IMG/VR virus record: IMGVR_UViG_3300044580_000030
Location: 1 to 36,425 of that record
Length of the DNA stretch: 36,425 nucleotides
Source of the DNA: a virus
Taxonomy: Duplodnaviria > Caudoviricetes
Reading direction: 5' to 3' (one strand)
This document shows, piece after piece, positions 1 to 22,089 of this stretch. The translations under genes were made by a program, and so were the position numbers. Numbering within the stretch: the first letter of the stretch is position 1; each line of letters starts with the position of its first letter. Under the pieces are notes generated by a model. The model was not told the DNA's origin and did no database searches. It worked only from the letters and a program-made list of their open reading frames with translations.

Positions 1-55
1 TGGCAACGCTAATACCGATTGCCGTCTTATCGTCAATATCTATTGCTCTATCGTT
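1..55. repeat. Terminal direct repeat (55 bp), identical to 36371-36425; circular-assembly overlap
   Basis: tggcaacgctaataccgattgccgtcttatcgtcaatatctattgctctatcgtt occurs at both ends; the reading frame is continuous across the join. Confidence 0.97.
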
Positions 56-70
56 AATACGGATAATCAT
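1..70 (-). CDS. 5' part (MIIRINDRAIDIDDKTAIGISVA) of the tail protein that continues at 36371->34848 across the circular junction
   Basis: ATG at 70 overlaps the TGA of 67..543 (ATGA); 23 codons run in frame into the ATG at 36371 (= position 1). Confidence 0.85.
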   Translation of the reverse strand, partial: MIIRINDRAIDIDDKTAIGISVA

Positions 71-543
71 CGTTTGATTGTTTGATATTCGCTCAAGTTG
101 AATTGTACGTCAACAATTATACTTCCTCCCTTGCCCTTGCGGATAACGTAATTGCCATCGGCAATGGTTGCGCTTACCCATACGCCATCAATCAATAGCT
201 CAATAGTTGGCGAGACAAACAGCCACTTCACCACACCAATAAATTGCTCATCGATGTAAGCATTGGCAACGATTATTCGTGTTGCATTACTGCCGATTGA
301 TTTCTGCATGTTACCCTCGAAGTCAATCACATTGCCCACACGCTTAACATCAACCTTATCCGTATATCTGGATGAGAACGGATAAAACCTGAACAGTCCG
401 TCACCGTCAAGATACTTGCAGATAATCATGTTGTCGCACGCAGGCAGAACAATGACTTGCTTGGTTATCGGTTGCCCGTCAATCGTGGCCGTGTAGGATT
501 GGCTGCCCAATGAATTGAACGTTGTCTTTGCTCTGTATATCAT
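67..543 (-). CDS. Putative tail/structural protein
   Basis: 158-aa ORF coupled within the tail gene run; function inferred from context only. Confidence 0.55.
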   Translation of the reverse strand: MIYRAKTTFNSLGSQSYTATIDGQPITKQVIVLPACDNMIICKYLDGDGLFRFYPFSSRYTDKVDVKRVGNVIDFEGNMQKSIGSNATRIIVANAYIDEQFIGVVKWLFVSPTIELLIDGVWVSATIADGNYVIRKGKGGSIIVDVQFNLSEYQTIKR

Positions 544-546
544 AGC

Positions 547-1158
547 TTAAAACCCTATAAACAACAAAAACACCCCCTGACTATTGACAAGGTCATTAGG
601 TGTATTATCATCGCCGACGTTGAATTGGATTAAATTAGCAGCCCTATCAACTTCAGCGATTTTATTTTGCAGGGAACCCGACCAGCCACCAACTACTTGT
701 CCAATTACCATGTAGCCATAATGTCCGAAGTTATGCACAAGCTCGTAACGTCCTTGCGATATCCGGTTGAAGTTGGCTGTTGTTACATTGATGGCACCGA
801 ACAGTACAGTAACAGTCTTATTACCGTCACTATCATAACCACAATGCACGCCTCCGATTATCGACGCCCCACCAAACTTGTTGTCCATCTGATTAACCTG
901 ATAATCGACCTCACTCTTATTGTACGTCTCGTCCTTGCTATAGACGTTGAGGTTGTTTCTGGCGCTCGCCTTGTTGGCCACATCATTAAGGTTGCTCGAT
1001 GGCTTAAGGAAGGATAATTTTCCGTTCAACCAACTGACAAGGTTATTGAACGTCATGTTTTTAGTCGCTACGCCACTTCTGCCGAACGCTATTCGATTCT
1101 CCATGCCCTGATTTTCAGGAACTTCAATCGGTTGTTCAAACAATTTTTTATCAGCCAT
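547..1158 (-). CDS. Putative minor tail/fibre-associated protein
   Basis: SNLNDVANKASARNNLNVYSKDE motif typical of fibre proteins; beta-rich C-terminus (ISQGRYELVHNFG). Confidence 0.55.
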   Translation of the reverse strand: MADKKLFEQPIEVPENQGMENRIAFGRSGVATKNMTFNNLVSWLNGKLSFLKPSSNLNDVANKASARNNLNVYSKDETYNKSEVDYQVNQMDNKFGGASIIGGVHCGYDSDGNKTVTVLFGAINVTTANFNRISQGRYELVHNFGHYGYMVIGQVVGGWSGSLQNKIAEVDRAANLIQFNVGDDNTPNDLVNSQGVFLLFIGF

Positions 1159-1176
1159 ATGTTTTGAATTTAATTG

Positions 1177-1755
1177 TTAATCAATTGTAAACTTATCTCC
1201 GTTGTAATCAAGGAATACTCCATCGTCATAATCAAGCGCATAGCTTGTTTGTTTAAATATTTCGCTTCCGTAAAAATAAATATACACAGGATAACCCTGT
1301 ATTGCTATGTAAGGTTGCTCGCTGTTTGCTGCAAGCTCCGTCAGTGCTGCTTGCTCATACGATTGTCGAACGGCGTTAATTGCCTCGAACTGAAACGACT
1401 GCTGAACAGTGCCTGCCAGGTCCGACTTCACGACAACCGTTACAACTCGACTTACGTTTGTGTCAATTATCGAATCATTAGGCTGCTCGAAGTCGTCTAT
1501 TGCGTCGGCAACAAGTGAACGAACGAACTCGCTTGCGTTGAATTGAAAGCGCCTTTTATTTGCCGAAATGTCCTTCAGGAAAATCGCCTTGCCTGTTATG
1601 TACGACACACCGTCAACCGTTGCCTCGACAATAAGATAGTCAGGCACTGTGCCTGAATACGTGGCATCGAAGTAAAAAATCAAATCTGACTGCACGGCCA
1701 GAAGTCGGCAGTCACCGATGAAGTTGTCTCTTGTAATGTCAATTGCGGTTATCAT
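1177..1755 (-). CDS. Putative structural protein
   Basis: 192-aa ORF with ATGA overlap in the tail run. Confidence 0.5.
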   Translation of the reverse strand: MITAIDITRDNFIGDCRLLAVQSDLIFYFDATYSGTVPDYLIVEATVDGVSYITGKAIFLKDISANKRRFQFNASEFVRSLVADAIDDFEQPNDSIIDTNVSRVVTVVVKSDLAGTVQQSFQFEAINAVRQSYEQAALTELAANSEQPYIAIQGYPVYIYFYGSEIFKQTSYALDYDDGVFLDYNGDKFTID

Positions 1756-2219
1756 CGCATAAACTCTTTAATCACGTCGCTGTACACCGTCACGCTTGCC
1801 TTGTTCTGCAGCTGCTCCTTTAACTCGTCAACTTCTGCCTCAAGCTCGGCCAGTAGTGTGCCGTCGTTGTATTTGTTCGGTACTTTAATTCCTCGCTCAT
1901 CGATTTTCCTTGCCACAAGGTACGCAAAGCGCTTTTCATTGTCAACTTTTATACCCTTGTCTTTTACCCACTGCAGAATAACGCCGTATAACCTTCCTCG
2001 CCTCTGTGGCGCTGTCGGTCGTCTTCCATGCACGAGCTGGTAAGTGTAGTTTGTGCCCAATATCGTTACCGTAACCCCTCCTTGTCGCTGCTCTGTTCTG
2101 CCTTCCAGCTCACGCTCCCAACGGCCAGACGCTTTCAATCCCATGCGCCTGTATTTGCTTTTCAGGCCTTCAATTGCCCGCTCAAGCCAATCATTTGCTA
2201 TGTCCGCAAGGTTATTCAT
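1752..2219 (-). CDS. Putative neck/tail-completion protein (HK97 gp10-like, basic)
   Basis: KASG, GRRP, ILQWVKDKGI and FAYLVARKIDERG motifs common in phage neck proteins. Confidence 0.55.
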   Translation of the reverse strand: MNNLADIANDWLERAIEGLKSKYRRMGLKASGRWERELEGRTEQRQGGVTVTILGTNYTYQLVHGRRPTAPQRRGRLYGVILQWVKDKGIKVDNEKRFAYLVARKIDERGIKVPNKYNDGTLLAELEAEVDELKEQLQNKASVTVYSDVIKEFMR

Positions 2220-2640
2220 CTACCAACGTTATTTCGATTGCGACAAAATCAATGTTTGAAGCGAACTCGTTCAATTGCATTATTGCCCGCTCGCTCTTAA
2301 TTGTGTACCCGTACGTGCAAGCAAACTCGCCAATCCAGCTAATAGCAATGTCGATAAGGTCGTTTAGTCGTGCGTTTAGCTTCTCTTCGAACGTCTCGGC
2401 AACGCTGGCAAAGCTCGTTGCTTCAAATTTTCTTCCGACAATGATAACACCATTATAAGTGATTGACTGTACAACATTGTTTGCCCGCTCAATTTCTGCG
2501 TTGAAATCTGCGCCCAGCAGTATTTGCCCTTCGGCCAGTGTCATTTTGTTTGCGTGCAGTGACTGGAAGTAATTGCTGCCAAGAATTAACTTTGCTCCTT
2601 TGGCCGTTGCGAATGCCTTTATGTCGTTATAGATTTTCAT
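2212..2640 (-). CDS. Putative tail-completion/structural protein, first gene after a promoter
   Basis: 142-aa ORF downstream of a TAACTTTG box. Confidence 0.45.
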   Translation of the reverse strand: MKIYNDIKAFATAKGAKLILGSNYFQSLHANKMTLAEGQILLGADFNAEIERANNVVQSITYNGVIIVGRKFEATSFASVAETFEEKLNARLNDLIDIAISWIGEFACTYGYTIKSERAIMQLNEFASNIDFVAIEITLVDE

Positions 2641-2655
2641 CGATTATTTTTTTTG

Positions 2656-2663
2656 CAAAGTTA
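2656..2663 (-). promoter_or_regulatory. Bacteroidota sigma -7 box TAACTTTG for the tail operon
   Basis: Matches TAnnTTTG, 15 nt upstream of the ATG at 2640. Confidence 0.7.
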
Positions 2664-2702
2664 CAACGCATGAACATTGTTTACTGTAATTCAATTTTTT
2701 GC

Positions 2703-2723
2703 AGTGCTTTTGCTATGCAATTG
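2703..2723. repeat. 21-bp exact inverted copy of iteron segment 21843-21863
   Basis: agtgcttttgctatgcaattg is the reverse complement of caattgcatagcaaaagcact. Confidence 0.9.
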
Positions 2724-2734
2724 TTATGTACAAT

Positions 2735-3361
2735 TTAATTTTTAAAAAATCCCGCCCACTGTTCCGCAACAGCCTCGGCAATCCCTTTAAAAGTTTTACT
2801 CCGCAATTTCGCCCTTTCTGGCCCAGGTGGCAAATTGTATAATCGTTGCGCCTGTTTTTTTGGTAATTCCTTCCAAATATGCTTTACATTGTTTGTTTCC
2901 TTCAATTTTGGTAATCCTTCAATCCACAAGCAAGTTGCTTTGCTTTCAGGCTCACCAAACATATACGGCTGTATTAATTGGTCGTATTTTTTGCCAATCA
3001 ATTCTAAAGCATATTTGTGCGGTATTGGGTTCTCAATTACTTTCATCTTCATCGGTGCATCCAGCAACTTTTTAAAGAAGGCGCAAGCATCATTTAAGTT
3101 TTGCCACCTTTCTTCATTTCGGCTCCCGTCTTTATTCCAGAGCCAACGTACGCCACTATTTGTAATAAATGTGCAGGGCGGGTGGGCTATCATTGCAATA
3201 TACTTTCCGCTATAAGCCTCAATAATTGCATCGCCTTGTATATGCCATTCGGGATGCCCACCCGAACACGGTTGCAAATCACAGCTATAAGCCTCAATGC
3301 CTCGCTTTCTTAATTCTATTGTTATTGCCTGACTTTCTTCACAGGCTACTAAAACTATCAT
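2735..3361 (-). CDS. Phage DNA cytosine-C5 methyltransferase-like protein
   Basis: VLVACEESQ (motif I variant), YSCD, IAHPPCT catalytic PC motif, IENP, KATCLW. Confidence 0.8.
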   Translation of the reverse strand: MIVLVACEESQAITIELRKRGIEAYSCDLQPCSGGHPEWHIQGDAIIEAYSGKYIAMIAHPPCTFITNSGVRWLWNKDGSRNEERWQNLNDACAFFKKLLDAPMKMKVIENPIPHKYALELIGKKYDQLIQPYMFGEPESKATCLWIEGLPKLKETNNVKHIWKELPKKQAQRLYNLPPGPERAKLRSKTFKGIAEAVAEQWAGFFKN

Positions 3362-3888
3362 TCTTGTCTGCCTTTTTTCATTTTCACCTCTTGCAACCGG
3401 CGCTGGAAGTCATTGATTCGCTTCTGTGCGACAAGCTCCAACATTGCATCGGCATAACGCATCTGTTTAACTTCTTCAATCTTATAACCAAGCGTTATAG
3501 CTATCTGTCTTATTTGCAAGTAAGCGCCAAGCTCCTCAAGCTCTGCAATACCGGCCAATTCGAAGTCTGCATCGTGCGATGACAGCAGCTCATTTTCCAA
3601 CTCAATCGTTCTGCGCACCTGGTCCAACAGGTAGTTGTAGCACTGAATCGCTCTGAACAGCTCTTTGTCACCGATGTCCTTAACCCCGAAAATATCAAAC
3701 CAATACACTGCCCGGTAAAACGATAGCTCTCTTACCTCTGCCTGCAGTTGCTTTACTGTGTCGAACGGCCAATCATCGAACTTGCCAATGCCAAGTGTGT
3801 CCATTGACTGTTTGGCCAAGTCGCTGAAGCGAATAATCGTGTCAACTTCGCTTTTGTCTTCCAATTCAATGTATTCCTTTACCGTCAT
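3358..3888 (-). CDS. Hypothetical protein (possibly tail-assembly-chaperone-like)
   Basis: 176-aa acidic helical ORF, ATGA-coupled on both sides. Confidence 0.4.
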   Translation of the reverse strand: MTVKEYIELEDKSEVDTIIRFSDLAKQSMDTLGIGKFDDWPFDTVKQLQAEVRELSFYRAVYWFDIFGVKDIGDKELFRAIQCYNYLLDQVRRTIELENELLSSHDADFELAGIAELEELGAYLQIRQIAITLGYKIEEVKQMRYADAMLELVAQKRINDFQRRLQEVKMKKGRQE

Positions 3889-5030
3889 AATGCTCGCACT
3901 CCTTTATATGGCCGTCCAATAAGTTTTGTACATGCATAGATGAGCGCATCAACAAGATGGTCATCGCCATCCTTCGGTGTCTCGCTCTTTTTGTCCAACC
4001 AAATGTAACCGTTCAGTTCTCTGGCAAGGTTATAACTGTCATCGGTAACGATTAACTTGTACTGCTGCATTTTTTTCAGAATTTCAACTTTCCGCATCTT
4101 CTCTACCGCAACAACGTTCATTCCTCGAACCCGCAAATCGTAAACAGTCCTTGCACTTGCACTATCGGCAACAATCAATTTGTTCGGCTCTGTGTGCAGA
4201 ACAAGCTTACGAAACAGCATCTCGGTCGAGTTGCCCGATTCAAACAACTTCTCCTCTGCGTAAATTATCTGTTGTTTATGGTCAATAGCTACACGAACAA
4301 GAGCGTCCTGGTCCCGGTAACCAAAGTCAAGGCCATATATGTATGGCAGCGTCTCGTCGAACTGGCCAAAGTCATACTTAAGAATCGTATCCTCGAGCTG
4401 CCCGAACTCTCCCATGCCATAAACCCGATACCAATTTGCCCACTCTGGTTTATTTTTTCTACTTTCAATAAACTCGAATTCGTTTTTAGCAATAAATGGA
4501 TTATCCTTATAGTTACTGCGAATGATTTTGTAATTCGAATCTTTCCCTAAGATATATTCATTTAGCCAAAACTCGGCCGATGGGTTGAAATCTAAGAAAG
4601 TAACTTGCTGCACACGGCTGTAGAATTGCCGGAAGACATCCCAACTTATACGTCGATTACACTCATTGACAAACAGTATATCTGGCCTTAAAGAGTGCGC
4701 TCGTGCCTCGTTGCCCTCAATGCCAAAGAATTCAACACGTGCGTTGTTGATATAATACGTGTGCTCGCTCTTATTCTTTACAGCTCCAACATTGACGTTC
4801 ATCGCTTCCAGTATTTCGTCAAATACCTTCATCGCTCCGCCCTTTAAGTGTGGCAAGGCGTAGGAAGCGATTACGATGTGCTTCTTCTTCTTTGACAACA
4901 ATGCAATTTGCGCAATAAGCTGCAGGATTGAATAAGTTTTACCGCTACCCTGCCCACCTTGATTGATTATTAGCGGATAGCCAGCAAGATAAGCGTCTAA
5001 ATTCTCGTGATATACACGAGTGTATTTCAT
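3885..5030 (-). CDS. terL: Terminase large subunit (PBSX-like)
   Basis: Walker A GGQGSGKT, LFVNEC Walker B, DFNP, YKDNPF, nuclease GLDFG and DHLVDALIY. Confidence 0.93.
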   Translation of the reverse strand: MKYTRVYHENLDAYLAGYPLIINQGGQGSGKTYSILQLIAQIALLSKKKKHIVIASYALPHLKGGAMKVFDEILEAMNVNVGAVKNKSEHTYYINNARVEFFGIEGNEARAHSLRPDILFVNECNRRISWDVFRQFYSRVQQVTFLDFNPSAEFWLNEYILGKDSNYKIIRSNYKDNPFIAKNEFEFIESRKNKPEWANWYRVYGMGEFGQLEDTILKYDFGQFDETLPYIYGLDFGYRDQDALVRVAIDHKQQIIYAEEKLFESGNSTEMLFRKLVLHTEPNKLIVADSASARTVYDLRVRGMNVVAVEKMRKVEILKKMQQYKLIVTDDSYNLARELNGYIWLDKKSETPKDGDDHLVDALIYACTKLIGRPYKGVRAL

Positions 5031-5452
5031 TTTCCTTCAAGTTTTTTGATTTTGTCTGCTTGCTCCTCGTCCTCAACGACAATCTTAGGTACCTGAATTG
5101 TATGCTCCATCTTTGAACGCAGCGCATATTGGTCAGGATAGTTGCGCTCCAGCCACCATGCGGCCGACTGCCAGCTACCGTCTTCAATGATTCGGCGCTT
5201 GCAGATGTCAGCGATTTTATCGTCGCCGATTTCTTCTGCTTTTTTTACGGCGTCAACAAATTCAGGTTTATTGTCAAGCCATTCGGTAAATGTTTCGTAA
5301 AATATGCCTGCCATCTTACAAGCTCGCACCCTTCCTTGCCCTTCAGCAAGCGCAGTAAGTAAGCGAAGTACAACATCTTTGTTATACTTTTTTCTTTCTT
5401 TTTTAACTATATTATTTACAATTTTTTGTAGATTTATGTTTTTTTTAGTCAT
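5027..5452 (-). CDS. Terminase small subunit-like HTH protein
   Basis: RACKMAGI..TFTEW HTH, AAWWLER motif; directly upstream of terL. Confidence 0.75.
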   Translation of the reverse strand: MTKKNINLQKIVNNIVKKERKKYNKDVVLRLLTALAEGQGRVRACKMAGIFYETFTEWLDNKPEFVDAVKKAEEIGDDKIADICKRRIIEDGSWQSAAWWLERNYPDQYALRSKMEHTIQVPKIVVEDEEQADKIKKLEGK

Positions 5453-6369
5453 AAATCATATTTTTCTCTTTTTGGTTCATTAGTAAAAGGAATATCTTCT
5501 TCAAATGCATCCCAATACATCGTGTTTATACGATAATTTGGGATTTTGAGTATTTTTGGCACAAGAAAATTATAATTAATTCTATGATGCAACCTACCGC
5601 CGATCTTTTTTTGCTTTTCTGCATGAATGCATGAAGGTAACTGAATTGGGCAAATTATTGCCTTCGAAAATAGCTTTGTCTCATTGTATATTTCCGTTAA
5701 TCCGCCTTCTGCTGTTGCAGACATCGTTTGGTCTAAATAGATAGCGCCAAATAGACTGCCGGTAAAAAGTCCATCATTTAATATTGTAACGAATTGCGAA
5801 GTATCGTCGTCATGCAATCCTCTCTCACCTCTATAGATGTATTTTACGTTATAAAAAGAACAATTCATAACCTTGTAGTGAATTAATTTGTCAGTAAAAT
5901 TTACGAAAATATCACCTACTTGTGGCAAGCCGAATAAGCCGATATGATATTTTTTTATAAATTCGGCAATCGCATCAAATGCCTTTATGACATCATCGCC
6001 ATTAGCAAGTCTTTCGTAATGTTGATTTGGCCGTATCGCAAATACTTTAGTATCGTCATCCATTACGCAATAAACTTCAATTCCCATTCCTTTTGCGATA
6101 TCGTAGAACATGTTTCTCGCCATTCCAGCTGCTCTTCTCGATGGCGACTTTCGATGTACGAAATCATATCTTCGCCTTGCCTCATTTATATCGAAGATGA
6201 AAAGGTTGAAACCGTTTTTTTTGGCTTTTTCCTTATAATCTTCAATATCTGGCGTTTCGTTATCGATTACAACATGCACTTTTTGCATGTCGTAGCCAAT
6301 TTTATTTAGAAACTTAATAGTTTTCAATTCTTTGGCTCGCTTATACGATGGGATAAAAATATCAATCAT
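5449..6369 (-). CDS. GT-A fold glycosyltransferase (GREB1-like / TET-associated type), putative DNA modification
   Basis: N-terminal IFIPSYKR, ARN, VMDDD (DxD), HDDD, GGLTEIY; next to ParB and terminase. Confidence 0.72.
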   Translation of the reverse strand: MIDIFIPSYKRAKELKTIKFLNKIGYDMQKVHVVIDNETPDIEDYKEKAKKNGFNLFIFDINEARRRYDFVHRKSPSRRAAGMARNMFYDIAKGMGIEVYCVMDDDTKVFAIRPNQHYERLANGDDVIKAFDAIAEFIKKYHIGLFGLPQVGDIFVNFTDKLIHYKVMNCSFYNVKYIYRGERGLHDDDTSQFVTILNDGLFTGSLFGAIYLDQTMSATAEGGLTEIYNETKLFSKAIICPIQLPSCIHAEKQKKIGGRLHHRINYNFLVPKILKIPNYRINTMYWDAFEEDIPFTNEPKREKYDL

Positions 6370-7078
6370 TGCTCAAAATTTTATTTTTAATTTTTAACAA
6401 TTCGTCCTCAATAAAGCCATCAATACCGTTATCTATCAACACGAGTCGTAATCTTTCGATTACTTTCTTTTCTTCTTCCGTGGCATTATAGGCATAATAA
6501 TTTGCAATTGCCTCATAATCAATTTTTACAAACCGTGTCGCTAAAAGTTGAAAGACTTCTTTAATTTCCGAACTTACGTTTGCCGAATTTACGATTTCCA
6601 TTTTTTTGTCGTATTTTTCGGTATTTACGCAATCTTTCAGTCTAAGTGACGGCTTCAATTCTGGCTCGTAGTATATTGATTCGATTTTCAATTCGCTAAG
6701 TAATTCAGTGGCTGTTTTTTTGGGAATATCCACTCCCCACTCCTCCAGCAGCTTATCGTCCCATTCGTTGGCCAATTTCTCCCAATCCCACTCGCCAAAC
6801 GGAACATTATCCTCGATGATGAACCGCTGTTTCTCTTCATCGGTCAGCTCGCTTGCTTTCCGCACCCATTCGTCCGGTACTTCCTTATAACCCAACGACA
6901 GCAGCGCCCTATATCGCATATTACCGCCAAGTATAGTGCCGTCATCATCGATGACAATTGGCCGTAGCGCCATCATCTTCGGGAATTCCTTCACCGATTG
7001 GACAAGTTTTTTGAATTTCTCGTCCTTTATAATTCTCGGGTTGGATGAATTAGGTTTTAATTGATTTAGCCTTATCAT
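6362..7078 (-). CDS. ParB/Srx-like N-terminal domain protein with a helical C-terminal domain
   Basis: LKPNSSNPR, RPIVID, ILGGNMRYRAL, FIIEDN..GEWD; C-terminal IYYEP..DYEAIANYYA..LVLID. Confidence 0.85.
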   Translation of the reverse strand: MIRLNQLKPNSSNPRIIKDEKFKKLVQSVKEFPKMMALRPIVIDDDGTILGGNMRYRALLSLGYKEVPDEWVRKASELTDEEKQRFIIEDNVPFGEWDWEKLANEWDDKLLEEWGVDIPKKTATELLSELKIESIYYEPELKPSLRLKDCVNTEKYDKKMEIVNSANVSSEIKEVFQLLATRFVKIDYEAIANYYAYNATEEEKKVIERLRLVLIDNGIDGFIEDELLKIKNKILSND

Positions 7079-7096
7079 AATAATTTTGTTTTTTTG

Positions 7097-7750
7097 TTAT
7101 AGATTATATTCCTCGCCAATTTCTGCACATAATGTTCTTCCGAAATTATTCCAGTAGGGCGGGCGCACTCGCACAAGCCTTGTGCCTTTGTCATAAGGGA
7201 GGAAGCGCATCGTTTTGCCATCTTTTGTAAGGCTGTAATCATTTTCAATAATATCAACATCTATCGACAATACTCTGCCTTTTCCATATGCAGCCTTTTT
7301 GCCTAAATATCTTATATGTCTGCGCAATATCTGATGTACTCGTTCACGGTCGCCAACTGCATAAGCAACCATCTTTGTTGCAAGTAGCAGTGGTAATGGA
7401 TGATTATACTCTCGATATATACCACTTTGTAGGTTTGGACTTCCCTGAGTGAGTTCAATTTTACTCTGACGAAACTTCTTACGCCAATATTGTAAACTTT
7501 CAGCCACCTCCCCTTCTGGAAATAGAGCGCTTGCGCACCAACCCCAATGTCCGTTAATATGCCATTTGCCTAATGGTAAAGGTACGTCTATTGGTTCGCT
7601 GTTTCTTGTTGGCGGTTCATCTCCTTTTTGCTGATGAAATGGCATAAGAGCCCATGCCATTAAAGCATCCAAATGAATCGGCTCGTAAGGGTCATAATAT
7701 AATCCGGTACCATCTAAATGAAATGTAATCTTTAAATTTTGTAAGCTCAT
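7097..7750 (-). CDS. csf3: Csf3 (Cas5-like RAMP) of type IV CRISPR-Cas
   Basis: IHLDALMAWA, PLPL, WCASALF, YAVGD, Gly-rich loop LGKKAAYGKGRV, C-terminal RFLP..RPPYW. Confidence 0.85.
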   Translation of the reverse strand: MSLQNLKITFHLDGTGLYYDPYEPIHLDALMAWALMPFHQQKGDEPPTRNSEPIDVPLPLGKWHINGHWGWCASALFPEGEVAESLQYWRKKFRQSKIELTQGSPNLQSGIYREYNHPLPLLLATKMVAYAVGDRERVHQILRRHIRYLGKKAAYGKGRVLSIDVDIIENDYSLTKDGKTMRFLPYDKGTRLVRVRPPYWNNFGRTLCAEIGEEYNL

Positions 7751-8478
7751 AGCAATTCTCTTACTTTTTGGTATAATTCAGGATAATTGGTTCTTAACCA
7801 TTGTATTCTTCCATTATTTTCTCCATCGGTAGACAACCATCCCGTGCTTCTGATTGTCTCTGCCGATTGCCCGCAATTTTCCTTCAAATATATAGGATTT
7901 ATAGGCAAATCATACGCATAATGATAAGCCCAAACATCATTTATTGTGAAATCTATTATAGGGCTTATTCTTTCAATTCCGTTCTTATCAATATATTTAC
8001 GTCCTTTATATTGCAAAAGAGCTTTCCTTCCTAATGATTCTTCTGCTCTCAATCCCCAAAACATGCCTGTAAATTTATTTGCTTTAGCCCATTCGTTTGC
8101 TGGATTCTTTTTTATCATCGATACTACTTTATTTTGGGTATACTTGTCTCTCATATGCGGCAAACCAAATTCTTTGCACAATTCCATGTAATCAATTTCG
8201 ATTTGTAATTCAGTGTAATTTAAATTCATCGATTTTACTATGTTTTGCATAAATTGATATGACTCGGGTATCGCATATCCGCTTTTAATGTATAGGACAG
8301 GTATATCCGAAATAAATGAAGTGCATAGGTGTAATACCACATTACTGTCCTTACCTCCAGACCAACTCACATAGTGCGAATAATCGATATTCTTTTCAAT
8401 TATTCGCTTTGCTCCGTCAACTTTCTTTTTAAAAGAGAGTTCCCTGGCCCAAAGTTGGTATTTTAGCTTGTTTTTCAT
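7747..8478 (-). CDS. cysH: CysH-like PAPS-reductase-family (PP-loop) protein
   Basis: VSWSGGKDS PP-loop, GLRAEES..R, SPIIDFTINDVWAY..LPINPIY. Confidence 0.88.
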   Translation of the reverse strand: MKNKLKYQLWARELSFKKKVDGAKRIIEKNIDYSHYVSWSGGKDSNVVLHLCTSFISDIPVLYIKSGYAIPESYQFMQNIVKSMNLNYTELQIEIDYMELCKEFGLPHMRDKYTQNKVVSMIKKNPANEWAKANKFTGMFWGLRAEESLGRKALLQYKGRKYIDKNGIERISPIIDFTINDVWAYHYAYDLPINPIYLKENCGQSAETIRSTGWLSTDGENNGRIQWLRTNYPELYQKVRELL

Positions 8479-9133
8479 TTTTCATCTCCTCCTGACTTGG
8501 TAATAGGTAGCATAATAATTGATACAATGGGCTCTGATACTTGTCTTTAGCCCAAGATTGAAATGTAAGCCATCGATTAATGCCATATTTGTGCATTACC
8601 ATTGGTGGACAATCTAATGACTCCAATATTGTGCGCCCAAATCCTATGTGCAAATATTCGTTAAGCATATTATACCATTCATTTACTTTTTCCTTATCGC
8701 TGGCATTTACAGTAATATTTTCGAATCGCCATAAACCAAATTGTTTATTATTTACTGGGGCATTCAGCGAACCATGCTTCTTGTAACTTGTAGTAATATA
8801 AGCCGTCCATACATCTCTATCTACTCCATTCAAAACAAAACGTCTAAAGTCAGAGCGTTGTAAACGTTCGAATGTTCTTCCGTCGCATAGCCAGCTACTC
8901 GAGCGCTCCCATTTATAAGATAATGCCAGATAAGCATCAATACCAATTCTGTTACTCTCTGGAGCTTTCAAAACATCGATATTCGTAAATTTCTTTCCAA
9001 ACAGCTCAGAGCGATGAATAGTATCCGTCTCTTCTCCAGTGACGCAGCATATCCCAATTTCAGTTTTTTTCGGAATATCAGGACAATCCGGCAAATTGCT
9101 TATTGCTTTGGCTATCAAGTTTACGCTGTGCAT
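8429..9133 (-). CDS. csf1: Csf1 (Cas8-like large subunit) of type IV-B
   Basis: N-terminal CCVTG..FTNIDVLKAPES motif, SYKKHGSLNAPVN; position between csf2 and cysH/csf3. Confidence 0.68.
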   Translation of the reverse strand: MHSVNLIAKAISNLPDCPDIPKKTEIGICCVTGEETDTIHRSELFGKKFTNIDVLKAPESNRIGIDAYLALSYKWERSSSWLCDGRTFERLQRSDFRRFVLNGVDRDVWTAYITTSYKKHGSLNAPVNNKQFGLWRFENITVNASDKEKVNEWYNMLNEYLHIGFGRTILESLDCPPMVMHKYGINRWLTFQSWAKDKYQSPLYQLLCYLLPSQEEMKNEKQAKIPTLGQGTLF

Positions 9134-9395
9134 TTTTAAGCCTCCATTTCTTTATTTTAAGGGCATTCTTCGTCTTGTGCGTTATTATCTGACTGCAATG
9201 ATTTACAGTAAAGTTTTCAAGGAGAAAACATTCCATTTCTGTGTATCTCGGCCGCTTCTTATATCCATGTCGTAATAGCCAATTATTGACTGTACCTGGA
9301 TTCTTATTCAACATCTTTGCTATTTCCCGAATAGACATGTCTCTGAAATTGCTAATCATCAGCGTCCTCTGTGACAATGGTAGTTTGCCGCTCAT
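9078..9395 (-). CDS. Small basic HTH DNA-binding protein inside the csf module
   Basis: MSIREIAKMLNKNPGTVNNWL HTH followed by a second helical unit (RYTEME...KTKNALKIKKWRL). Confidence 0.7.
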   Translation of the reverse strand: MSGKLPLSQRTLMISNFRDMSIREIAKMLNKNPGTVNNWLLRHGYKKRPRYTEMECFLLENFTVNHCSQIITHKTKNALKIKKWRLKNAQRKLDSQSNKQFAGLS

Positions 9396-10605
9396 ATGCT
9401 CCGATTTTTGTTAAGAATAAAATTATTTTTTCCTTATTCTCTGACAGATATTTTTCATATAGCTCAGGAGATGGGCAATTTTCTATATCAATTTTCACTC
9501 TACCAAACCCTCTATTTGAATTTGCTCCTATATAACCCTTCTGTTGCATAATTTGTAAACCTTTCCCCAGTGCCGATAGCTCAAGGTCAGATATATGATT
9601 GTCTACGTCAATACCTCCCGTAAGAGTTACACCTGGCCGTATGCATTCAGTTATTGCTATCATTGACGCATTTTCGCCATCGTCATGTCCTTCATGGTCT
9701 TCACGCCGTGTCAGGAAATGCCATTCCAGTAGTTCGCTTACAGGTTTATCCCCATTGCCCCATTCAATGCATGATGGTCGATAATCTGCCGATTTGAAAC
9801 GACCTGACAAAATGCGATTACCTAAAGCAACACCAAACAATGATAAAGCTGGCAGTGTGTCTCTGAATTGATATATGCCGTCTGCTTTGACCGCTCCATT
9901 GTCACCCATTAATGATGCCAATGCCTTGCCAGCCTTACTATTTTCTTCAAGCGCCCCGCCGGAATATAATGCATGGAAAAACCATAGTGCAACCTTTGGT
10001 TTGTCTCGGCGTGCCGATATGCCGATTGATTTAAGAAAATGGTCTGCCAAAACGTCCCTTAATTGTCCTCTGAATGCATTACCAGAATAATAAGGTAATG
10101 ATACTACACCATTGTCTGTCATTACTTGCATACGCCTGAATAGTGTTGCGTTGCCTGCCTTTGTATCGCCTCCATGAGACAGTGGACTTAATGTAGTTAT
10201 CGTTATGCCAATATCATATTTTGGCTGAGGCTTTGCTATTCCTTTGGTTGGGTTATAAGGCTCAATATCAACCATATCGCATGCCTTTTTCTGTTCCTCC
10301 CATTTCCCAATTGTCGCAATCATACCAGCTATTTTTGGATAAGTCTTTATCCAATTAAGGATAGAGTGTGCATTTTCTCCAGTTATGGTCACTATCATTT
10401 CAGCTCTCATTTCCGGATGCATATCGTCGAAACTCACATCCATTATAGTGCTGAATTTTTCGACAAATGACAATAGCGTTGGCTCGTTCGCAAGTTGAAG
10501 AAATTTGTCGCTTACGAAATCGGACAAATTACGATTAACTTTAATCGAACCGTTTTGTGCGATGTATCTTAATACTCGCATTACTTGATAAAATTGTTCC
10601 TTCAT
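9352..10605 (-). CDS. csf2: Csf2 (Cas7-like RAMP backbone) with a ~125-aa helical N-terminal extension (putative fused Cas11)
   Basis: ITTLSPLSHG, LPYYSGNAFRGQLRD, LYSGG, LSLFG, TRRED, ECIRPG, Gly loop IGANSNRGFGRV. Confidence 0.88.
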   Translation of the reverse strand: MKEQFYQVMRVLRYIAQNGSIKVNRNLSDFVSDKFLQLANEPTLLSFVEKFSTIMDVSFDDMHPEMRAEMIVTITGENAHSILNWIKTYPKIAGMIATIGKWEEQKKACDMVDIEPYNPTKGIAKPQPKYDIGITITTLSPLSHGGDTKAGNATLFRRMQVMTDNGVVSLPYYSGNAFRGQLRDVLADHFLKSIGISARRDKPKVALWFFHALYSGGALEENSKAGKALASLMGDNGAVKADGIYQFRDTLPALSLFGVALGNRILSGRFKSADYRPSCIEWGNGDKPVSELLEWHFLTRREDHEGHDDGENASMIAITECIRPGVTLTGGIDVDNHISDLELSALGKGLQIMQQKGYIGANSNRGFGRVKIDIENCPSPELYEKYLSENKEKIILFLTKIGAYERQTTIVTEDADD

Positions 10606-10619
10606 AGTTGTTTATTTTA

Positions 10620-10919
10620 TTAGTTGTTTTTTCTTGATTTTATTTCTTTGATTATTTTCTGCTCATGCGCCTTGCGCCGCACTTTCTCCAATAAGATGTA
10701 AAGCTCGTTGTTGTTAAGTTCTTTAAGGTTAATCAAGTTAAACACATTCGGGCAATGCTTAACCGACCAAACGATATGCCCGAAATTCCTCATGTTTTTT
10801 ATTCGTTCCCGAAAGCGTTCATCACGAAAGAACCTCGGACGTTTTTCGAGAAACGCAATGACTTCAGCATCGGTCATTTCATCGATGTTGAATTCAAGTT
10901 TTTTCCTACCTGTTTTCAT
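10620..10919 (-). CDS. Hypothetical protein
   Basis: 99-aa ORF immediately upstream of csf2. Confidence 0.6.
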   Translation of the reverse strand: MKTGRKKLEFNIDEMTDAEVIAFLEKRPRFFRDERFRERIKNMRNFGHIVWSVKHCPNVFNLINLKELNNNELYILLEKVRRKAHEQKIIKEIKSRKNN

Positions 10920-11061
10920 GGCTTTTCGATTTTTGGTTTATTTTTTCGATTTTTTTGATAGCAAACCCAGAGTAACCGAGCGCCTTTGCCTTATATTTCT
11001 CTGGCCGCTCGACATTAACCAGCGTATAAATATAGTCGCCTTTAATTATAATTATTTCCAT
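10906..11061 (-). CDS. Small hypothetical protein (51 aa, MEIIIIKGDYIYTLVNVERPEKY...)
   Basis: Read manually: ATG 11061 to TAG 10906, overlapping the next start; not in the ORF track. Confidence 0.5.
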   Translation of the reverse strand: MEIIIIKGDYIYTLVNVERPEKYKAKALGYSGFAIKKIEKINQKSKSHENR

Positions 11062-11065
11062 ACCG

Positions 11066-11073
11066 CAAATTTA
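11066..11073 (-). promoter_or_regulatory. Bacteroidota -7 box TAAATTTG heading the csf/ParB/terminase operon
   Basis: TAnnTTTG match in the intergenic gap. Confidence 0.6.
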
Positions 11074-11088
11074 ATCGTTTTTGTACGA

Positions 11089-11113
11089 AATTTTGTAAAT
11101 CATTTACAAAATT
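11089..11113. promoter_or_regulatory. Perfect 12-bp inverted repeat, operator candidate
   Basis: AATTTTGTAAAT-C-ATTTACAAAATT, lying over the expected -33 region. Confidence 0.6.
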
Positions 11114-11139
11114 AACTGATTTTTACCAAAATCCGCTTA

Positions 11140-11796
11140 TTATTCATACAATTCAAAATGATAATGCCCTCCAGCTTTCCACGAAACAAGTTTCATCTTA
11201 TAATAGGTAAGATACTTGTTAGATTTAATTGCTGAAATAACAAGCTCATTTCCTCCCCATCCTCCAGTGTGAAGCTCGAGCTTCCGTTTCCCTTTGTATT
11301 TCTTGTGAAGAACAAACCCCCATTCGGCCATGTACCAGCCTTCTGGAAGTATTTCACTGACAAACTTCATCAAAGGCAAGCCATCATCTGGCTGGTAATT
11401 CTCAATGAATTGCAACCATTCTTCTGTCGGATAACCGTTTGCGTCCAATAGCGCATCGGGTAAATTTGGGTTTATATTTTCATTTATTTTCTGCCGAAAT
11501 TCGTCAAAACTCCTTACAACGATGTAAGTGTGTCCAAATTCGGTTATTCGTCGTTCAAATTCCTTCTGAAGCTCGGTTTGTTTGTTCCGTCCAACTTTCA
11601 GCTCGATAAACAATACCTTGCCATTGTTAAGGATAGCGATTAGGTCGGACACTCCAGCCGTTACACCTATGCGCTTCAGCTTTACTGCTTCAGCAACGTT
11701 ACGGCTACCTCCGTTCGGAACGGCGAATATTATTCCGAGACGGCTAAGCCTAAACCATCGAACGCATGCTGCCTGTAAGTTGTCTTCTGCTTTCAT
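11140..11796 (-). CDS. VRR-NUC nuclease fused to an uncharacterised C-terminal domain
   Basis: FAVPNGG, GVTAGVSDL, FIELK..Q..Q PD-(D/E)xK motifs; extra ~105 aa (GYPT..LHTGGWGGNE..GGHY). Confidence 0.82.
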   Translation of the reverse strand: MKAEDNLQAACVRWFRLSRLGIIFAVPNGGSRNVAEAVKLKRIGVTAGVSDLIAILNNGKVLFIELKVGRNKQTELQKEFERRITEFGHTYIVVRSFDEFRQKINENINPNLPDALLDANGYPTEEWLQFIENYQPDDGLPLMKFVSEILPEGWYMAEWGFVLHKKYKGKRKLELHTGGWGGNELVISAIKSNKYLTYYKMKLVSWKAGGHYHFELYE

Positions 11797-12223
11797 GGTT
11801 AACTTTTTTTAAGTATCTTTTTGCAATTTCGGAATTTCTTTTTTCTTTCCATCGGCTTGCGCCAATATGCCAAAGTAATGCCCTTTCCTCCAATGTTTTC
11901 GCTCCGTAGTACTCGCAATACAAACGAAACATTTCAAACGATTTTTCAGGGCAAAACCTATCGGATAACGAATAATTGGTCCTGGCAATTCTATTCACAT
12001 CCTTAACAAGGATTGGCCGAATTTGTGCAATTCCAACGTCAAGGCCTGACTTGTGTACGGCCAATGCATTGCCTCCGCTCTCTACCATGCAGATAATTTT
12101 GAAGTGCTCACGAAGTTCGATTAATTGACGTGCAACCGCAAAGTCAATTGTTGTGCGACTTGGAAAATCAGAACTTATCGGCAGCATTACCGTAATTATT
12201 GATAGGATAATTCGCTTAATCAT
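11750..12223 (-). CDS. Lytic transglycosylase (SLT/lysozyme-like) with an N-terminal hydrophobic anchor
   Basis: ICMVESGG catalytic Glu motif, GIAQI, WHIG. Confidence 0.72.
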   Translation of the reverse strand: MIKRIILSIITVMLPISSDFPSRTTIDFAVARQLIELREHFKIICMVESGGNALAVHKSGLDVGIAQIRPILVKDVNRIARTNYSLSDRFCPEKSFEMFRLYCEYYGAKTLEERALLWHIGASRWKEKRNSEIAKRYLKKVNHESRRQLTGSMRSMV

Positions 12224-12225
12224 AT

Positions 12226-12621
12226 TTACGATTTTATAATTTTAACTTCATATCCGTATGGCTTTATTTTTTCGGCATGTTCGGCTATCTCCTGTAAATG
12301 GTAGTTAATCAGTGTCCTTGCTTCATCGCTACCTGCCGGCGGTTGCTTGTATTCGGCAAAAAGACGATAAATTTCATCATAAAATACAGCAATGTTAACA
12401 TACGAACGGCCGATTAATTTGACGCCAACTAAATCCTCATCATCAAACACTTCATCAAACAGCCGCTCCTTGTAATAATCGTTCAGTATTTTGCCGGCCA
12501 GCATACGAATCGAACAGCCGCTTGTATTGTCGGTTAGGATAACTTCTGGCTTCGTATAACCCATCTTCGTTCGCCGGGCTATTTGCGAAATTAGAAACAA
12601 GTAATCTTTTTTCTTCTTCAT
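12226..12621 (-). CDS. Hypothetical protein
   Basis: 131-aa ORF, coupled. Confidence 0.55.
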   Translation of the reverse strand: MKKKKDYLFLISQIARRTKMGYTKPEVILTDNTSGCSIRMLAGKILNDYYKERLFDEVFDDEDLVGVKLIGRSYVNIAVFYDEIYRLFAEYKQPPAGSDEARTLINYHLQEIAEHAEKIKPYGYEVKIIKS

Positions 12622-13190
12622 AAGTATTTGAGTTTAATTATTTTACAATCAATTATTGCATGTTTTGTAAGCGAATACCATTTGCCATCTTTATTAATTG
12701 CAATGTGGTAGTATTGTTTTTTATCCACAACAATCGCAGGGCGCATAGGTTCTATTTTGAAATTTCTTTGCAAACCGAGCATTATGTCAATATTTTCATA
12801 TTTTTGCTTAAAGAAAGAGAAATAATAATTACCCATTCTAATGTAATAAGTATATATCACTTTATTAATTAGCTCCTTAACATTATACGCCTTATCGGCG
12901 CTCATATGGTAATAATCACCAAACAATCGTATATGTGCATTCATATTTCGATAACCTAATGTCAGTGCCGAGCGCTTTGGCTTATTGTCAAGGTATTCGG
13001 CAATCTTTGTTAATGTTAGGCCAAATTTCTCAAATGCAATCTTTGCCGCTACAAGGTTGCAGAATACCGTTTCATGATATCTTCTGCCATGATTATATGA
13101 TTCAGCTAACTCTGCTGCATCGATTACGCAATCAAGCAACATTTTGAATTCTTCTTTTGTCATTTTTGGTTCTATGTTCTTTTTCTTCAT
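12618..13190 (-). CDS. Hypothetical protein (possible HTH: GLTLTKIAEYL)
   Basis: 190-aa ORF downstream of the helicase loader. Confidence 0.5.
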   Translation of the reverse strand: MKKKNIEPKMTKEEFKMLLDCVIDAAELAESYNHGRRYHETVFCNLVAAKIAFEKFGLTLTKIAEYLDNKPKRSALTLGYRNMNAHIRLFGDYYHMSADKAYNVKELINKVIYTYYIRMGNYYFSFFKQKYENIDIMLGLQRNFKIEPMRPAIVVDKKQYYHIAINKDGKWYSLTKHAIIDCKIIKLKYL

Positions 13191-13192
13191 AG

Positions 13193-13858
13193 CTATACTC
13201 TTTTTGATTTCCCATTATATTCGATGATGTTACACATTTCATACAACCTATCAGCAATGCGATCTCCATACATTGCACGTAAGTCAGCCAACGATAAGTT
13301 GGTTGTAAAGTGAGTCATTATCCCGGTAGCACACCAAAGGTTATACCTGCTTGTTATAAGCATAGATAACGGCAATATTTCATTGCCGAAATACATAACT
13401 TTTGCCTGCTCTGCGCCAATATCGTCAATACATATATTTCTTTTACTAATTTGCGATGCGCTAGCGTAGCAATAATTTACAAAGTCATAACCCATTTGCG
13501 CAGCCTCAACGACATCGTATGAATTAATAACCGTAAAATAACGGTCTAATTCGTCATGGCGAAGTATTAACGATAACGCTTGCATTAGCTTCGTTTTTCC
13601 AACACCTGTGTTTCCAATAAGCATTATCCCTTTGTTTGGCTTTACATCTTCATACACATCAACAACTCCACCATATAACCAAATTGCAAGCCTAATAATT
13701 ACTTCTTTGTTGTCAGTTATAACTTCTTTATTGATAACATGTCTTAACGCCAAACATATACCGTCATAGTTGTTATTAACCGCATGTTTACATTCATCGA
13801 TTTTTTCAATTGTTTCGACTTTATTGTTAAGTCTTATTAATTCTGATAATTTTTTCAT
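13193..13858 (-). CDS. DnaC/IstB-like AAA+ ATPase (helicase loader)
   Basis: GNTGVGKT, ICIDDIG, HFTTNL, YGDRIADRLYEMC, GKSKR. Confidence 0.88.
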   Translation of the reverse strand: MKKLSELIRLNNKVETIEKIDECKHAVNNNYDGICLALRHVINKEVITDNKEVIIRLAIWLYGGVVDVYEDVKPNKGIMLIGNTGVGKTKLMQALSLILRHDELDRYFTVINSYDVVEAAQMGYDFVNYCYASASQISKRNICIDDIGAEQAKVMYFGNEILPLSMLITSRYNLWCATGIMTHFTTNLSLADLRAMYGDRIADRLYEMCNIIEYNGKSKRV

Positions 13859-13873
13859 AACTAATTTTTTAGG

Positions 13874-14905
13874 TTAGCATTTGTAATTATGCCCGTATAG
13901 TTCTTTGAACTCGTTCATTGTTTTAACTTCGCCTTTTTTATAAGCTTCATAGAAATCATTCATCATTCTATCGAACTCTTTACTTTTTTCTTCAGCAATT
14001 TTTTTCGCTTCCTCGTTTTCGCGCCGGCGCCGCTCAAGCTCCTCCCTGTCTTTCTTATATTTTTCTTCCATATTGTCAAGATGTATTACTTGGTTTTTAA
14101 CTTGTAATTTTTGTACGGCTTGCCCGTTTTGTTTTGCGCCTGACGAGTAAGCGCCTTCAAGTACTTTGGCAATATTGCGGTCATTCTCGATTGTCCAATC
14201 GAACGTTGCTGTCCAACCTCGATTATTTTTGCCGCAGAGGAAGTCGTTGGAATTGATTTTCGCAAACGCCTCAAAGATTTTTTCCTTCGGCCAATCTTTA
14301 AGCCGTGCTTTGATTTTCCGCTTTCTGCTCTCTGTTAGCTTTTCAACTTTCGGTAAGTTGGTACAAATAGAGTTCCATTGCTCGGCAAACTCTTTGTAGT
14401 TTATGCTGTTGTCGTGGTTGATGTCGATTTTTTCTTCCTGCTGCTCTGGCTGTTTTTCTTCGGTTGGCTCTTTCGGTTGGTCTGTGGTTGGTCCTGGCGA
14501 TTCTGTTTCTGCCGTATCTACCGGTTGCTCTGGTTCTTTCGGTTCGTCTGTCTCGGCTGGTTTTTCTTTCGGTTGCTCTTTGTGTTTCTGCCAGCGCTTG
14601 CGGGCATTGTCGGCCAGCTTACGGCGCTTATCCTGTTGCTCGATTAGCAACTCGCATGATAATACACCGTCCTCAACGAGGAATAAGCCTGAGCTATTGA
14701 CGACAAAGCTCACCATTTCCTCGCTGCACCTGAACATGTAAGACAGTGTTTCGATGTCTGCATCAATTGCATTATCATTATTAGCCAGATGTTCGACTAT
14801 TGCCCAATATAAGCCATAGCCAGCCATGCCATACTTTGCCTCAAGCCGGGCGACTCGATGGTCGCTCCGGCTGTTGCTTCTATGATTAATGAGTAAGCTT
14901 CCCAT
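13874..14905 (-). CDS. Replication initiator (DUF4373/Lin1244-like N-terminus)
   Basis: KYGMAGYGLYWAIVEHL, NARKRW, C-terminal FLCGKNNRGWTATFDW..KVLEGAY; adjacent to the DnaC-like gene. Confidence 0.8.
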   Translation of the reverse strand: MGSLLINHRSNSRSDHRVARLEAKYGMAGYGLYWAIVEHLANNDNAIDADIETLSYMFRCSEEMVSFVVNSSGLFLVEDGVLSCELLIEQQDKRRKLADNARKRWQKHKEQPKEKPAETDEPKEPEQPVDTAETESPGPTTDQPKEPTEEKQPEQQEEKIDINHDNSINYKEFAEQWNSICTNLPKVEKLTESRKRKIKARLKDWPKEKIFEAFAKINSNDFLCGKNNRGWTATFDWTIENDRNIAKVLEGAYSSGAKQNGQAVQKLQVKNQVIHLDNMEEKYKKDREELERRRRENEEAKKIAEEKSKEFDRMMNDFYEAYKKGEVKTMNEFKELYGHNYKC

Positions 14906-15086
14906 TTTTTAGTGCATTTAATTTGTTGAGGAATATTTCGACAAGCTCGTCGATAGAGTTGATTTTGATTACGTCAATCTTTCGATTGTTGTAGAACACT
15001 TTAACGTGTCCAAATTCCTTGTCATACATACAGATGAGTGAATTTTCCTTCTCATCGTGGTAAGAAATTGTTTGATAACGGTTCAT
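14886..15086 (-). CDS. Hypothetical protein
   Basis: 66-aa ORF overlapping the initiator start. Confidence 0.55.
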   Translation of the reverse strand: MNRYQTISYHDEKENSLICMYDKEFGHVKVFYNNRKIDVIKINSIDELVEIFLNKLNALKNGKLTH

Positions 15087-15113
15087 GGCTTTAAATTTTA
15101 CGGTTAAAGTTAA

Positions 15114-15404
15114 TTATTTCTTAGCAAAAACAGTCCCATCTTCGTTTCTTTTTACAATTTTTAGCCCTAATTCCTCAACAAGTGCGTAAAATTCTTCCCG
15201 TTCGACTTGCCGGTAATATATGCCAAACTTTCTATCCTTACGGGTGTGCGAAATTTTGCTGCGGAAGCAAATTTCGTAGCAAGTCAGAACGTTGCTTCCG
15301 TAACGCAAACCGACATAGTAAATGATGCCAAATACATCATTTCTTTCCTTTATTTTCTCAAGGTTCCATTGTCCGAGAACCTTGTTCTTAAAATAGCTAT
15401 CCAT
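15114..15404 (-). CDS. Hypothetical protein
   Basis: 96-aa ORF with an A-rich leader. Confidence 0.55.
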   Translation of the reverse strand: MDSYFKNKVLGQWNLEKIKERNDVFGIIYYVGLRYGSNVLTCYEICFRSKISHTRKDRKFGIYYRQVEREEFYALVEELGLKIVKRNEDGTVFAKK

Positions 15405-15423
15405 TTTGTTTAGTTTTTAATTG

Positions 15424-22084: not shown

Positions 22085-22089
22085 GAAAC

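Follow-up and report, generated by a model that had tools for sequence, protein, structure and literature searches.

A tailed-phage genome of 36,425 nt (IMG/VR record IMGVR_UViG_3300044580_000030; "the window" below means this whole stretch of DNA) carries a removable CRISPR-Cas subtype IV-B cassette, in which the Cas11 subunit is fused to Csf2 (Cas7) and a CysH-like enzyme is encoded between csf1 and csf3. We propose, with a probability of roughly 0.45, that this cassette is an accessory DNA-modification module, likely expressed late and optionally docked on the sliding clamp, rather than an immune system or a part of the packaging motor. An original prediction had drawn the csf genes, cysH and the adjoining ParB, glycosyltransferase (GT), terminase and DNA methyltransferase (MTase) genes together into one undescribed system for packaging-coupled DNA modification. 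Its core, a scaffold of repeat-associated mysterious proteins (RAMP) serving DNA modification together with a CysH-like enzyme, gains from the non-random placement of such cassettes, from the near-constant presence of a partner enzyme and from a predicted clamp motif; the joint system with ParB, GT, terminase and MTase is not sustained, and nothing links the cassette to the packaging motor.

A fused subtype IV-B cassette in a tailed phage

The record is complete and has direct terminal repeats, and the minus strand of the window holds nearly all of its genes. The cassette and its genes are:

7052..10626, no strand assigned: removable csf cassette, skipped in contigs of kin phages, where 26 other letters stand instead
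9352..10605, minus strand: Cas11-Csf2 (Cas7) fusion, 417 aa; residues ~1–112 type IV Cas11, ~130–402 Csf2
9078..9395, minus strand: helix-turn-helix (HTH) protein, 105 aa, an optional part of the cassette; PF08281 1.6e-6
8429..9133, minus strand: Csf1 (Cas8-like), C-terminus QGTLF; PADLOC typeIV_Cas8 1e-9
7747..8478, minus strand: CysH-like PP-loop ATPase, 243 aa; PF01507 1e-25; motifs SGGKDS and GlRxxESxxR
7097..7750, minus strand: Csf3 (Cas5); PADLOC Csf3_0_IV / typeIV_Cas5 3e-37; TIGR03116 4e-27, below cut-off

With the csf2 signature, csf1, csf3, a Cas11 domain and a cysteine-less cysH with PP motifs, the cassette belongs to subtype IV-B, and the csf-cysH pairing within the system proposed as possibly undescribed is this known subtype. 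According to the accessible text of earlier accounts, IV-B (Csf1, Csf2, Csf3, a cysteine-less PP-loop CysH and no array) has been described on plasmids, in prophages and in an archaeal virus (PMC8175902, PMC7038947, bioRxiv 2023.08.24.554615), and nucleic-acid modification by its CysH has already been speculated upon (PMC8175902, PMC7038947); both the pairing and the idea are in print. Like the Mycobacterium sp. JS623 complex (PDB 7JHY) and Fuxivirus, the window combines Csf1–3 and a Cas11 domain with a cysteine-less CysH-like gene, and as in Fuxivirus the cassette is carried by a virus and has no array or adaptation genes (no Cas6, DinG, Cas1/2 or array was found in or around it, and no integrase, CRISPR array, tRNA or Rfam match in the 36,425-nt window). 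Unlike canonical IV-B, Cas11 is here fused to the Csf2 N-terminus, the gene order is csf2-HTH-csf1-cysH-csf3, and the fused clade resides mostly in tailed phages beside the terminase, with an exchangeable partner enzyme; the window Csf1 also differs from the IV-B reference in ending in a predicted clamp motif.

Residues 130–401 of the window Csf2 match PADLOC typeIV_Cas7 at 1.9e-47, and residues 130–402 of its AlphaFold2 (AF2) model (predicted local distance difference test, pLDDT, 89.9) gave VIA Z scores of 16.6–17.2 to Csf2 of IV-A and IV-B, with 16.6 to 7JHY; whole-protein fold searches covered this part and not the N-domain, which is all-helical in the model. The N-domain of the Csf2 family aligned with stand-alone type IV Cas11 at an hhalign probability of 93.6 (E 2e-7), and PADLOC typeIV_Cas11 matched the N-termini of 5/5 homologs, with no match on the window's own Csf2 N-terminus. 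Judged by these profile comparisons, Cas11 is present at family level as an N-terminal domain of Csf2 and not as a separate gene. The HTH gene occupies the same place in the two closest relatives (L082 and L102), where it encodes 126 aa.

The window cassette belongs to a broad phage clade with fused Cas11-Csf2. We found 456 homologs in the length class of the 417-aa Csf2 and fetched 171 loci (best 80 of 136 viral, best 80 of 129 metagenome and 10 genome loci, plus L001 and L002), 127 of which were non-redundant at 90% Csf2 identity, L002 being excluded. A separate cas11 or canonical csf1 was missing from 101/127, which we call fused; 72 of these cassettes were complete. In a quick tree of 94 rows, the 70 fused rows formed one group with a Shimodaira–Hasegawa-like approximate likelihood ratio test (SH-aLRT) value of 98 (no bootstrap). 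Genome-borne copies had hosts in Bacteroidota, Pseudomonadota, Chloroflexota, Thermodesulfobacteriota and others, and GenBank phages yielded one distant match, Skermania phage SPI1, with a canonical IV-B at a non-terminase site, which was excluded from the counts. No CRISPR-like array was found beside fused cassettes, where isolated two-copy repeats occurred in L123, L130 and L163, and no 10-mer was shared by more than four of the regions upstream (78) or downstream (53). An array (L060, L063, L079) or Cas6 (L060, L072, L080) lay within 8 kb of a few canonical phage IV-B loci. A separate clade (L059, L067, L068), perhaps an independent fusion, combines a Csf2 open reading frame (ORF) of ~500 aa with a csf1 of canonical type and a partner family that has no label (c154).

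The partner enzyme is exchangeable

The slot between or beside csf1 and csf3 was filled in 71/72 complete fused cassettes: by CysH in 32, a CysH variant in 15, CysH with IbrAB in 6, a radical S-adenosylmethionine (SAM) enzyme alone in 6, IbrAB alone in 5, CysH with IbrAB and MTase-like genes in 4, and a DUF4417-like protein alone in 3. N6/N4 DNA-methylase genes also lie inside cassettes, and GNAT-type genes inside three. Swaps recur across the tree, the 6-row clade of the window (SH-aLRT 96) alone showing four different contents, and CysH tracks the core less closely (Mantel rho 0.17/0.27, vs 0.64 for Csf1–Csf3; 39 loci).

The radical SAM family of the slot is B12-binding-like (TIGR04013 in 8/8, below cut-off). 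Searched alone, it had csf within 4 kb in 20/20 non-redundant viral loci, 7 of them known csf loci and 13 new, in fused and canonical cassettes; CysH/IbrA at E<0.01 was present in none. By its gene neighbourhoods, this family is csf-dedicated. IbrAB mostly stands alone, with csf in 1/75 loci among the matches listed (best 80 of 409). The DUF4417-like label refers to weak PF14386 matches (E 2e-4 to 1e-3, below cut-off); the AF2 model of this protein, from a 3-row alignment, had a pLDDT of 37, and Atlas and PDB sequence searches returned nothing usable.

It had been suggested that the window CysH and ParB form an IbrA/IbrB-like pair. True IbrAB does occur inside 15/72 complete fused cassettes, and the window, like IbrA/IbrB loci, has an enzyme of the 3'-phosphoadenosine-5'-phosphosulfate (PAPS) reductase fold together with a ParB-like gene. 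The window CysH matches PF01507 only, without the DUF3440 (PF11922) present in IbrA of related loci, and the window ParB has no BLAST similarity to the IbrB of L001 and clusters with the ParB of ParB-MTase and TET-associated-type glycosyltransferase (TAGT) loci, so the pairing holds for relatives of the cassette and fails for the window itself.

DndC had been mentioned for its shared fold, and the window CysH is not DndC-like: no cysteine is conserved among 39–49 homologs of the csf1-cysH-slot CysH (invariant-column check), and both a sulfate-assimilation CysH and DndC-type phosphorothioation were rejected for lack of cysteines. The closest PDB sequences to the window CysH are PAPS reductase and the ATP sulfurylase CysD, and it shares the PAPS-reductase/PP-loop fold with Dnd, Ssp, BREX type 4 (BrxP, 1.6e-16) and Tdp. 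The title of the paper on Tdp names an adenylated DNA intermediate. Proteins of this fold modify DNA in Dnd, Ssp and BREX4, and a P-loop NTPase (DndD/SspC/BrxC) is required there, according to the accessible text of PMC12914056. Unlike Dnd, Ssp and BrxP, the window CysH is without a conserved cysteine, and no such NTPase or desulfurase is encoded in or beside the cassette; since both the conserved cysteine and the partner NTPase are missing, phosphorothioation appears unlikely.

A second B12-binding radical SAM gene lies between csf3 and the csf-dedicated one in L256 (8583–10016) and L262 (8487–10004), a dual-specificity-phosphatase-like gene lies inside the cassette of L129 (4641–5327), and a ParB-PAPS-reductase fusion is found just upstream of the cassette in L032 (3372–4718).

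The gene run is a mosaic of separate modules

The cassette is flanked by an operon head and a ParB-terminase locus:

10620..11073, minus strand: operon head, consisting of the TAAATTTG box (putative promoter), a 51-aa ORF and a 99-aa ORF
11061-10906, minus strand: 51-aa ORF
10919-10620, minus strand: 99-aa ORF, with a 14-nt gap to csf2; adjoins ParB in the cassette-less variant
6362..7078, minus strand: ParB-like protein of the ParB-terminase locus; PF02195 (ParB_N)
5449..6369, minus strand: TAGT; PF20691 4e-14
5027..5452, minus strand: terminase small subunit (terS); PF20901, phrog_4102
3885..5030, minus strand: terminase large subunit (terL), PBSX-like; PF04466, phrog_2
3358..3888, minus strand: 176-aa ORF, no assigned function; phrog_19423 (6e-4) as sole match, no Pfam match
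2735..3361, minus strand: DNA methyltransferase with C5-type motifs PC and ENP; phrog_757 4e-54; separately removable

The PADLOC, Pfam and PHROG matches uphold the gene identities given earlier, and recomputed coordinates reproduce the described spacing exactly, with overlaps of 44 bp (csf2/HTH), 56 bp (HTH/csf1), 50 bp (csf1/cysH) and 4 bp (cysH/csf3), an 18-bp gap between csf3 and ParB, an 8-bp ParB/GT overlap, and 4-bp overlaps at GT/terS, terS/terL, terL/176-aa ORF and 176-aa ORF/MTase; the two small ORFs between the box and csf2 had been missed. Contigs in X2, X3 and X5 have one extra letter at 9132, which makes the 56-bp HTH/csf1 overlap strain-specific. Overlapping genes are common throughout the window genome, so tight spacing alone is no proof of shared function. 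As had been noted, no terminator is evident: a hairpin scan gave no match in the csf3-ParB gap (7078–7097), and the two minus-strand matches within 2735–11073 (at 5323 and 4347) both fall inside terminase genes; over 1–15500 the scan gave 23 matches, vs 13.2 ± 3.7 in shuffles. The TAAATTTG box does lie at 11073–11066, and its value as promoter evidence is weak. TAnnTTTG, which we take to be the Bacteroidota promoter consensus, occurs 15 times on the minus strand and 26 times on the plus strand of the window, and the TAAATTTG copy has no TTTG 17–23 nt upstream, i.e. no well-spaced -33 element. Being common and poorly spaced, the box was dropped as evidence for a promoter. A Bacteroidota host for the phage is suggested by the TAnnTTTG boxes only.

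Contigs of kin phages reveal the modular make-up of the run. Two runs from a single study, X2 and X4, have contigs in which position 7051 is joined to 10627 (supporting sides 103 and 255 letters), a joint that omits exactly the csf cassette and leaves the 99-aa ORF directly before ParB. One X1 contig joins the N-half of ParB to terS, skipping TAGT, and another spans ParB-csf3-cysH at ~99% identity; the MTase is skipped by joints from 2723/2728 to 3357/3362 in X1 (depth 36–44) and X2. These contigs are unphased, and each module is separately missing somewhere among them; a joint 8012–11073 in X3 (side 20) was disregarded. TAGT had no coverage in X1–X5, and its absence was counted solely for the X1 contig that spans the site. 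Third-position GC is 0.32–0.35 in csf1/2/3, cysH and TAGT, vs 0.44–0.55 in terL, the 176-aa ORF, portal, Clp protease and recT. ParB itself consists of two parts (GC 0.47 vs 0.33): the N-domain stays with terS and the C-domain (6362–6723; 120 aa, no Pfam match) moves with TAGT.

A reciprocal survey of TAGT (best 80 of 114 loci, 48 non-redundant) found ParB directly upstream in 47/48, terL within 3 kb in 17/20 loci with enough flank, and csf in 0/48 (0/23 of those with 4.5 kb upstream). An 83%-identical TAGT in L172 adjoins terS/terL without csf, three unrelated ORFs separate csf3 from ParB-TAGT in L102 (86% identical), and in L082 other genes come after csf3, with no ParB following. To judge from these loci, TAGT is a separate exchangeable module. 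The gene run is a mosaic, and a single system of csf, ParB, GT, terminase and MTase is not supported, because each module is separately absent in kin, none of the 48 surveyed TAGT loci carries csf, the window ParB is not IbrB-like and its CysH is not an IbrA. The ParB-TAGT pair and the MTase are cargo carried in parallel, and independently, at one ParB-terminase hotspot, and the linkage proposed earlier is mostly co-insertion into it.

The reading of ParB beside a terminase as the mark of a DNA-modification locus is borne out by gene content: a ParB-like gene, a glycosyltransferase and a methylase stand beside terS/terL, as in ParB-terminase (ParB-Tls) loci, which the accessible text of PMC4738411 describes as predicted DNA-modification sites and where modification at packaging time is a prediction too. 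Unlike these, the window genome has no detected TET/JBP dioxygenase, and its csf cassette is a separate insertion, absent from 48/48 other ParB-TAGT loci. ParB-activated T-dioxygenases have been described (PMC13229309, in part).

Placement beside the terminase and a predicted clamp motif on Csf1

Whether csf cassettes occur at random positions was addressed by a neighbourhood survey, which showed that those of the fused clade do not. Counting only loci with flanks of 3.6 kb on each side, we found terL within 3 kb of 14/26 fused cassettes (12 by custom profiles and 2 by PHROGs; the window is among the 14), vs 1/14 for canonical IV-B, where unlabelled ORFs were checked too, 7/36 for IbrA and 3/35 for DnaB (pooled 11/85; Fisher p 5e-5). 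DnaB was chosen as a control because RecT gave no loci and the SSB alignment was too variable. Cassettes were co-oriented with terL in 30/32 cases and lay between terL and portal in five; at least five terminase families flank fused cassettes, and ParB genes lie within 1.5 kb of 8/72 complete ones.

The window Csf1 ends in QGTLF, a predicted beta-sliding-clamp binding motif matching QL[SD]LF, which we take to be the beta-clamp consensus. Clamp-type QxxLF motifs occur in the last 12 residues of 10/87 fused and 9/25 canonical Csf1 (19/112 in total), vs 6/1065 other proteins (enrichment p 2e-8), and in 8/21 long Csf1 tails (at most 2 in 2000 shuffles). The predicted motif points to replicated DNA and not to the packaging motor; as it is found in a minority of fused Csf1, clamp docking would be optional.

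A proposed role in modification of phage DNA

Insertion of the cassette behind the operon head would give it late, co-oriented expression. On RNA, the fused subunit would then assemble into a filament with Cas7 and Cas11 at 1:1, capped with Csf1 and Csf3 as in the solved IV-B complex, and the Csf1 tail could tether this complex to the host beta clamp that remains on phage DNA after its replication. The PP-loop enzyme, presumably in contact with the complex, would activate a base or a group of the backbone on this DNA by adenylation, a step that radical SAM, IbrAB or DUF4417-like enzymes may replace or extend in other phages, and the resulting mark would protect the DNA of the progeny when the next host attacks it with restriction-type defence. 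Our working analogy is phage Mu, whose mom gene is expressed late. Mom is likewise an accessory phage enzyme and protects DNA by a base mark (accessible text of PMC7824862); unlike Mom, to which it has no homology, the cassette carries an exchangeable enzyme on a class 1 CRISPR scaffold. A literature search for a link between Mom and the clamp gave no support.

Several points weigh against this proposal. We infer DNA, rather than RNA or protein, as the substrate, and likewise the chemistry; there are also B12 radical SAM and PP-loop enzymes with RNA or protein substrates, and the solved IV-B complex binds heterogeneous RNA and not DNA, according to the accessible text of PMC7937560. The clamp motif is missing in 77/87 fused Csf1 and present in 0/62 short tails, and its pattern was refined after the tails had been seen. 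Regarding placement, the TAAATTTG box is a putative promoter only, 12/26 cassettes are not near terL, several lying among replication and recombination genes, and the site ahead of terS is a hotspot for insertions in general (TAGT 17/20), so placement may reflect tolerance. The loci are related, and the terL profiles were built from csf loci and may favour these; the same profiles still found terL within 9 kb in 9/20 DnaB control loci.

A wider form of the proposal appears doubtful at present. It would make IV-B in general a phage DNA-hypermodification platform and not an immune system, in which an RNA-filled Cas7/Cas11 filament (a 1:1 fusion here) travels on the host clamp and brings to progeny DNA, before it is packaged, a set of interchangeable enzymes (PP-loop adenylase, B12 radical SAM, IbrAB, DUF4417-like, methylases, GNAT), leaving undescribed base or backbone marks, possibly at sites selected by RNA.

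The RNA binding of the solved complex lends itself to a different, unlikely explanation, RNA-directed counter-defence, in which the Csf filament would capture host CRISPR RNAs or other RNAs for the slot enzyme to adenylate or methylate, as an anti-CRISPR sponge or RNA-modifying module. A sponge model has been published (PMC8175902, PMC7038947, both in part), and the closest PDB relatives of slot enzymes include tRNA thiolases and MiaB/RimO. However, the clamp-type motif of Csf1 and the DNA-methylase genes inside cassettes would be left unexplained, and a position between terL and portal would mean late expression for an anti-CRISPR.

The clamp motif could also be read, with still lower probability, as docking on host or competitor DNA, which the complex would mark or block in the way that IV-A silences its targets, since phage and host DNA are alike to a clamp; mobile elements can be suppressed by type IV-A with no cleavage involved (PMC12669027, in part). 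Against this, fused cassettes have no array or mini-array beside them and no common upstream motif, and placement in the head operon better fits progeny DNA.

Slightly less probable again is a moron without a nucleic-acid-modifying role, neutral or useful to host fitness through, for example, second-messenger or cofactor chemistry, which happens to occupy an insertion-tolerant site. Such a gene set would fit the presence and absence of the cassette within one phage population, its alien codon composition and the closeness of CysH to ATP sulfurylase and FAD synthase folds, but not intact core genes whose conservation extends over many phage families and host phyla, an enzyme nearly always kept, non-random placement and a clamp motif. 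A single machine for packaging-coupled modification, made up of csf, CysH, the window ParB, TAGT, terminase and MTase, is very improbable: the single tight, co-oriented gene run, the ParB or IbrB genes near or inside some cassettes and the co-occurrence of csf with ParB-GT in L102 and L043 are outweighed by the separate absence of modules in kin, by TAGT loci without csf, by the intervening or missing genes after csf3 in L102 and L082, and by the variety of flanking terminase families.

If the cassette does modify phage DNA, a CRISPR scaffold would have been turned to a new use, DNA chemistry for counter-defence, involving new enzymes and perhaps modification directed by RNA. The function of IV-B has been open for more than 10 years, and reviews, in their accessible parts, name the CysH partner as key. 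The window and its kin offer several handles on it, namely a compact four-gene fusion cassette, enzyme exchanges in nature that limit the possible chemistry, a Csf1 tail predicted to dock on the clamp and pointing to DNA, and naturally occurring kin that have or lack the cassette and whose virion DNA could be compared. In the literature searched (partial texts, without supplements or subscription papers), we came across neither the clade with fused Cas11-Csf2 nor the exchange of enzymes, the bias towards the terminase or the clamp motif; supplementary locus tables may show them.

Other features of the window

The window also encodes portal, Clp protease, tape measure, RecT/SbcC and DnaC/DnaD-like proteins. 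An AT-rich non-coding region (21684–22106) holds an 11-nt periodic repeat family of the GCAATTGC type, possibly an origin or a protein-binding array; an inverted copy lies at 2699–2736, just past the MTase, and MTase-less kin have more such repeats at the joint. At 18977–20498, a phiEco32-like COOH-NH2 ligase lies beside a class II glutamine amidotransferase, forming a peptide-ligase pair.

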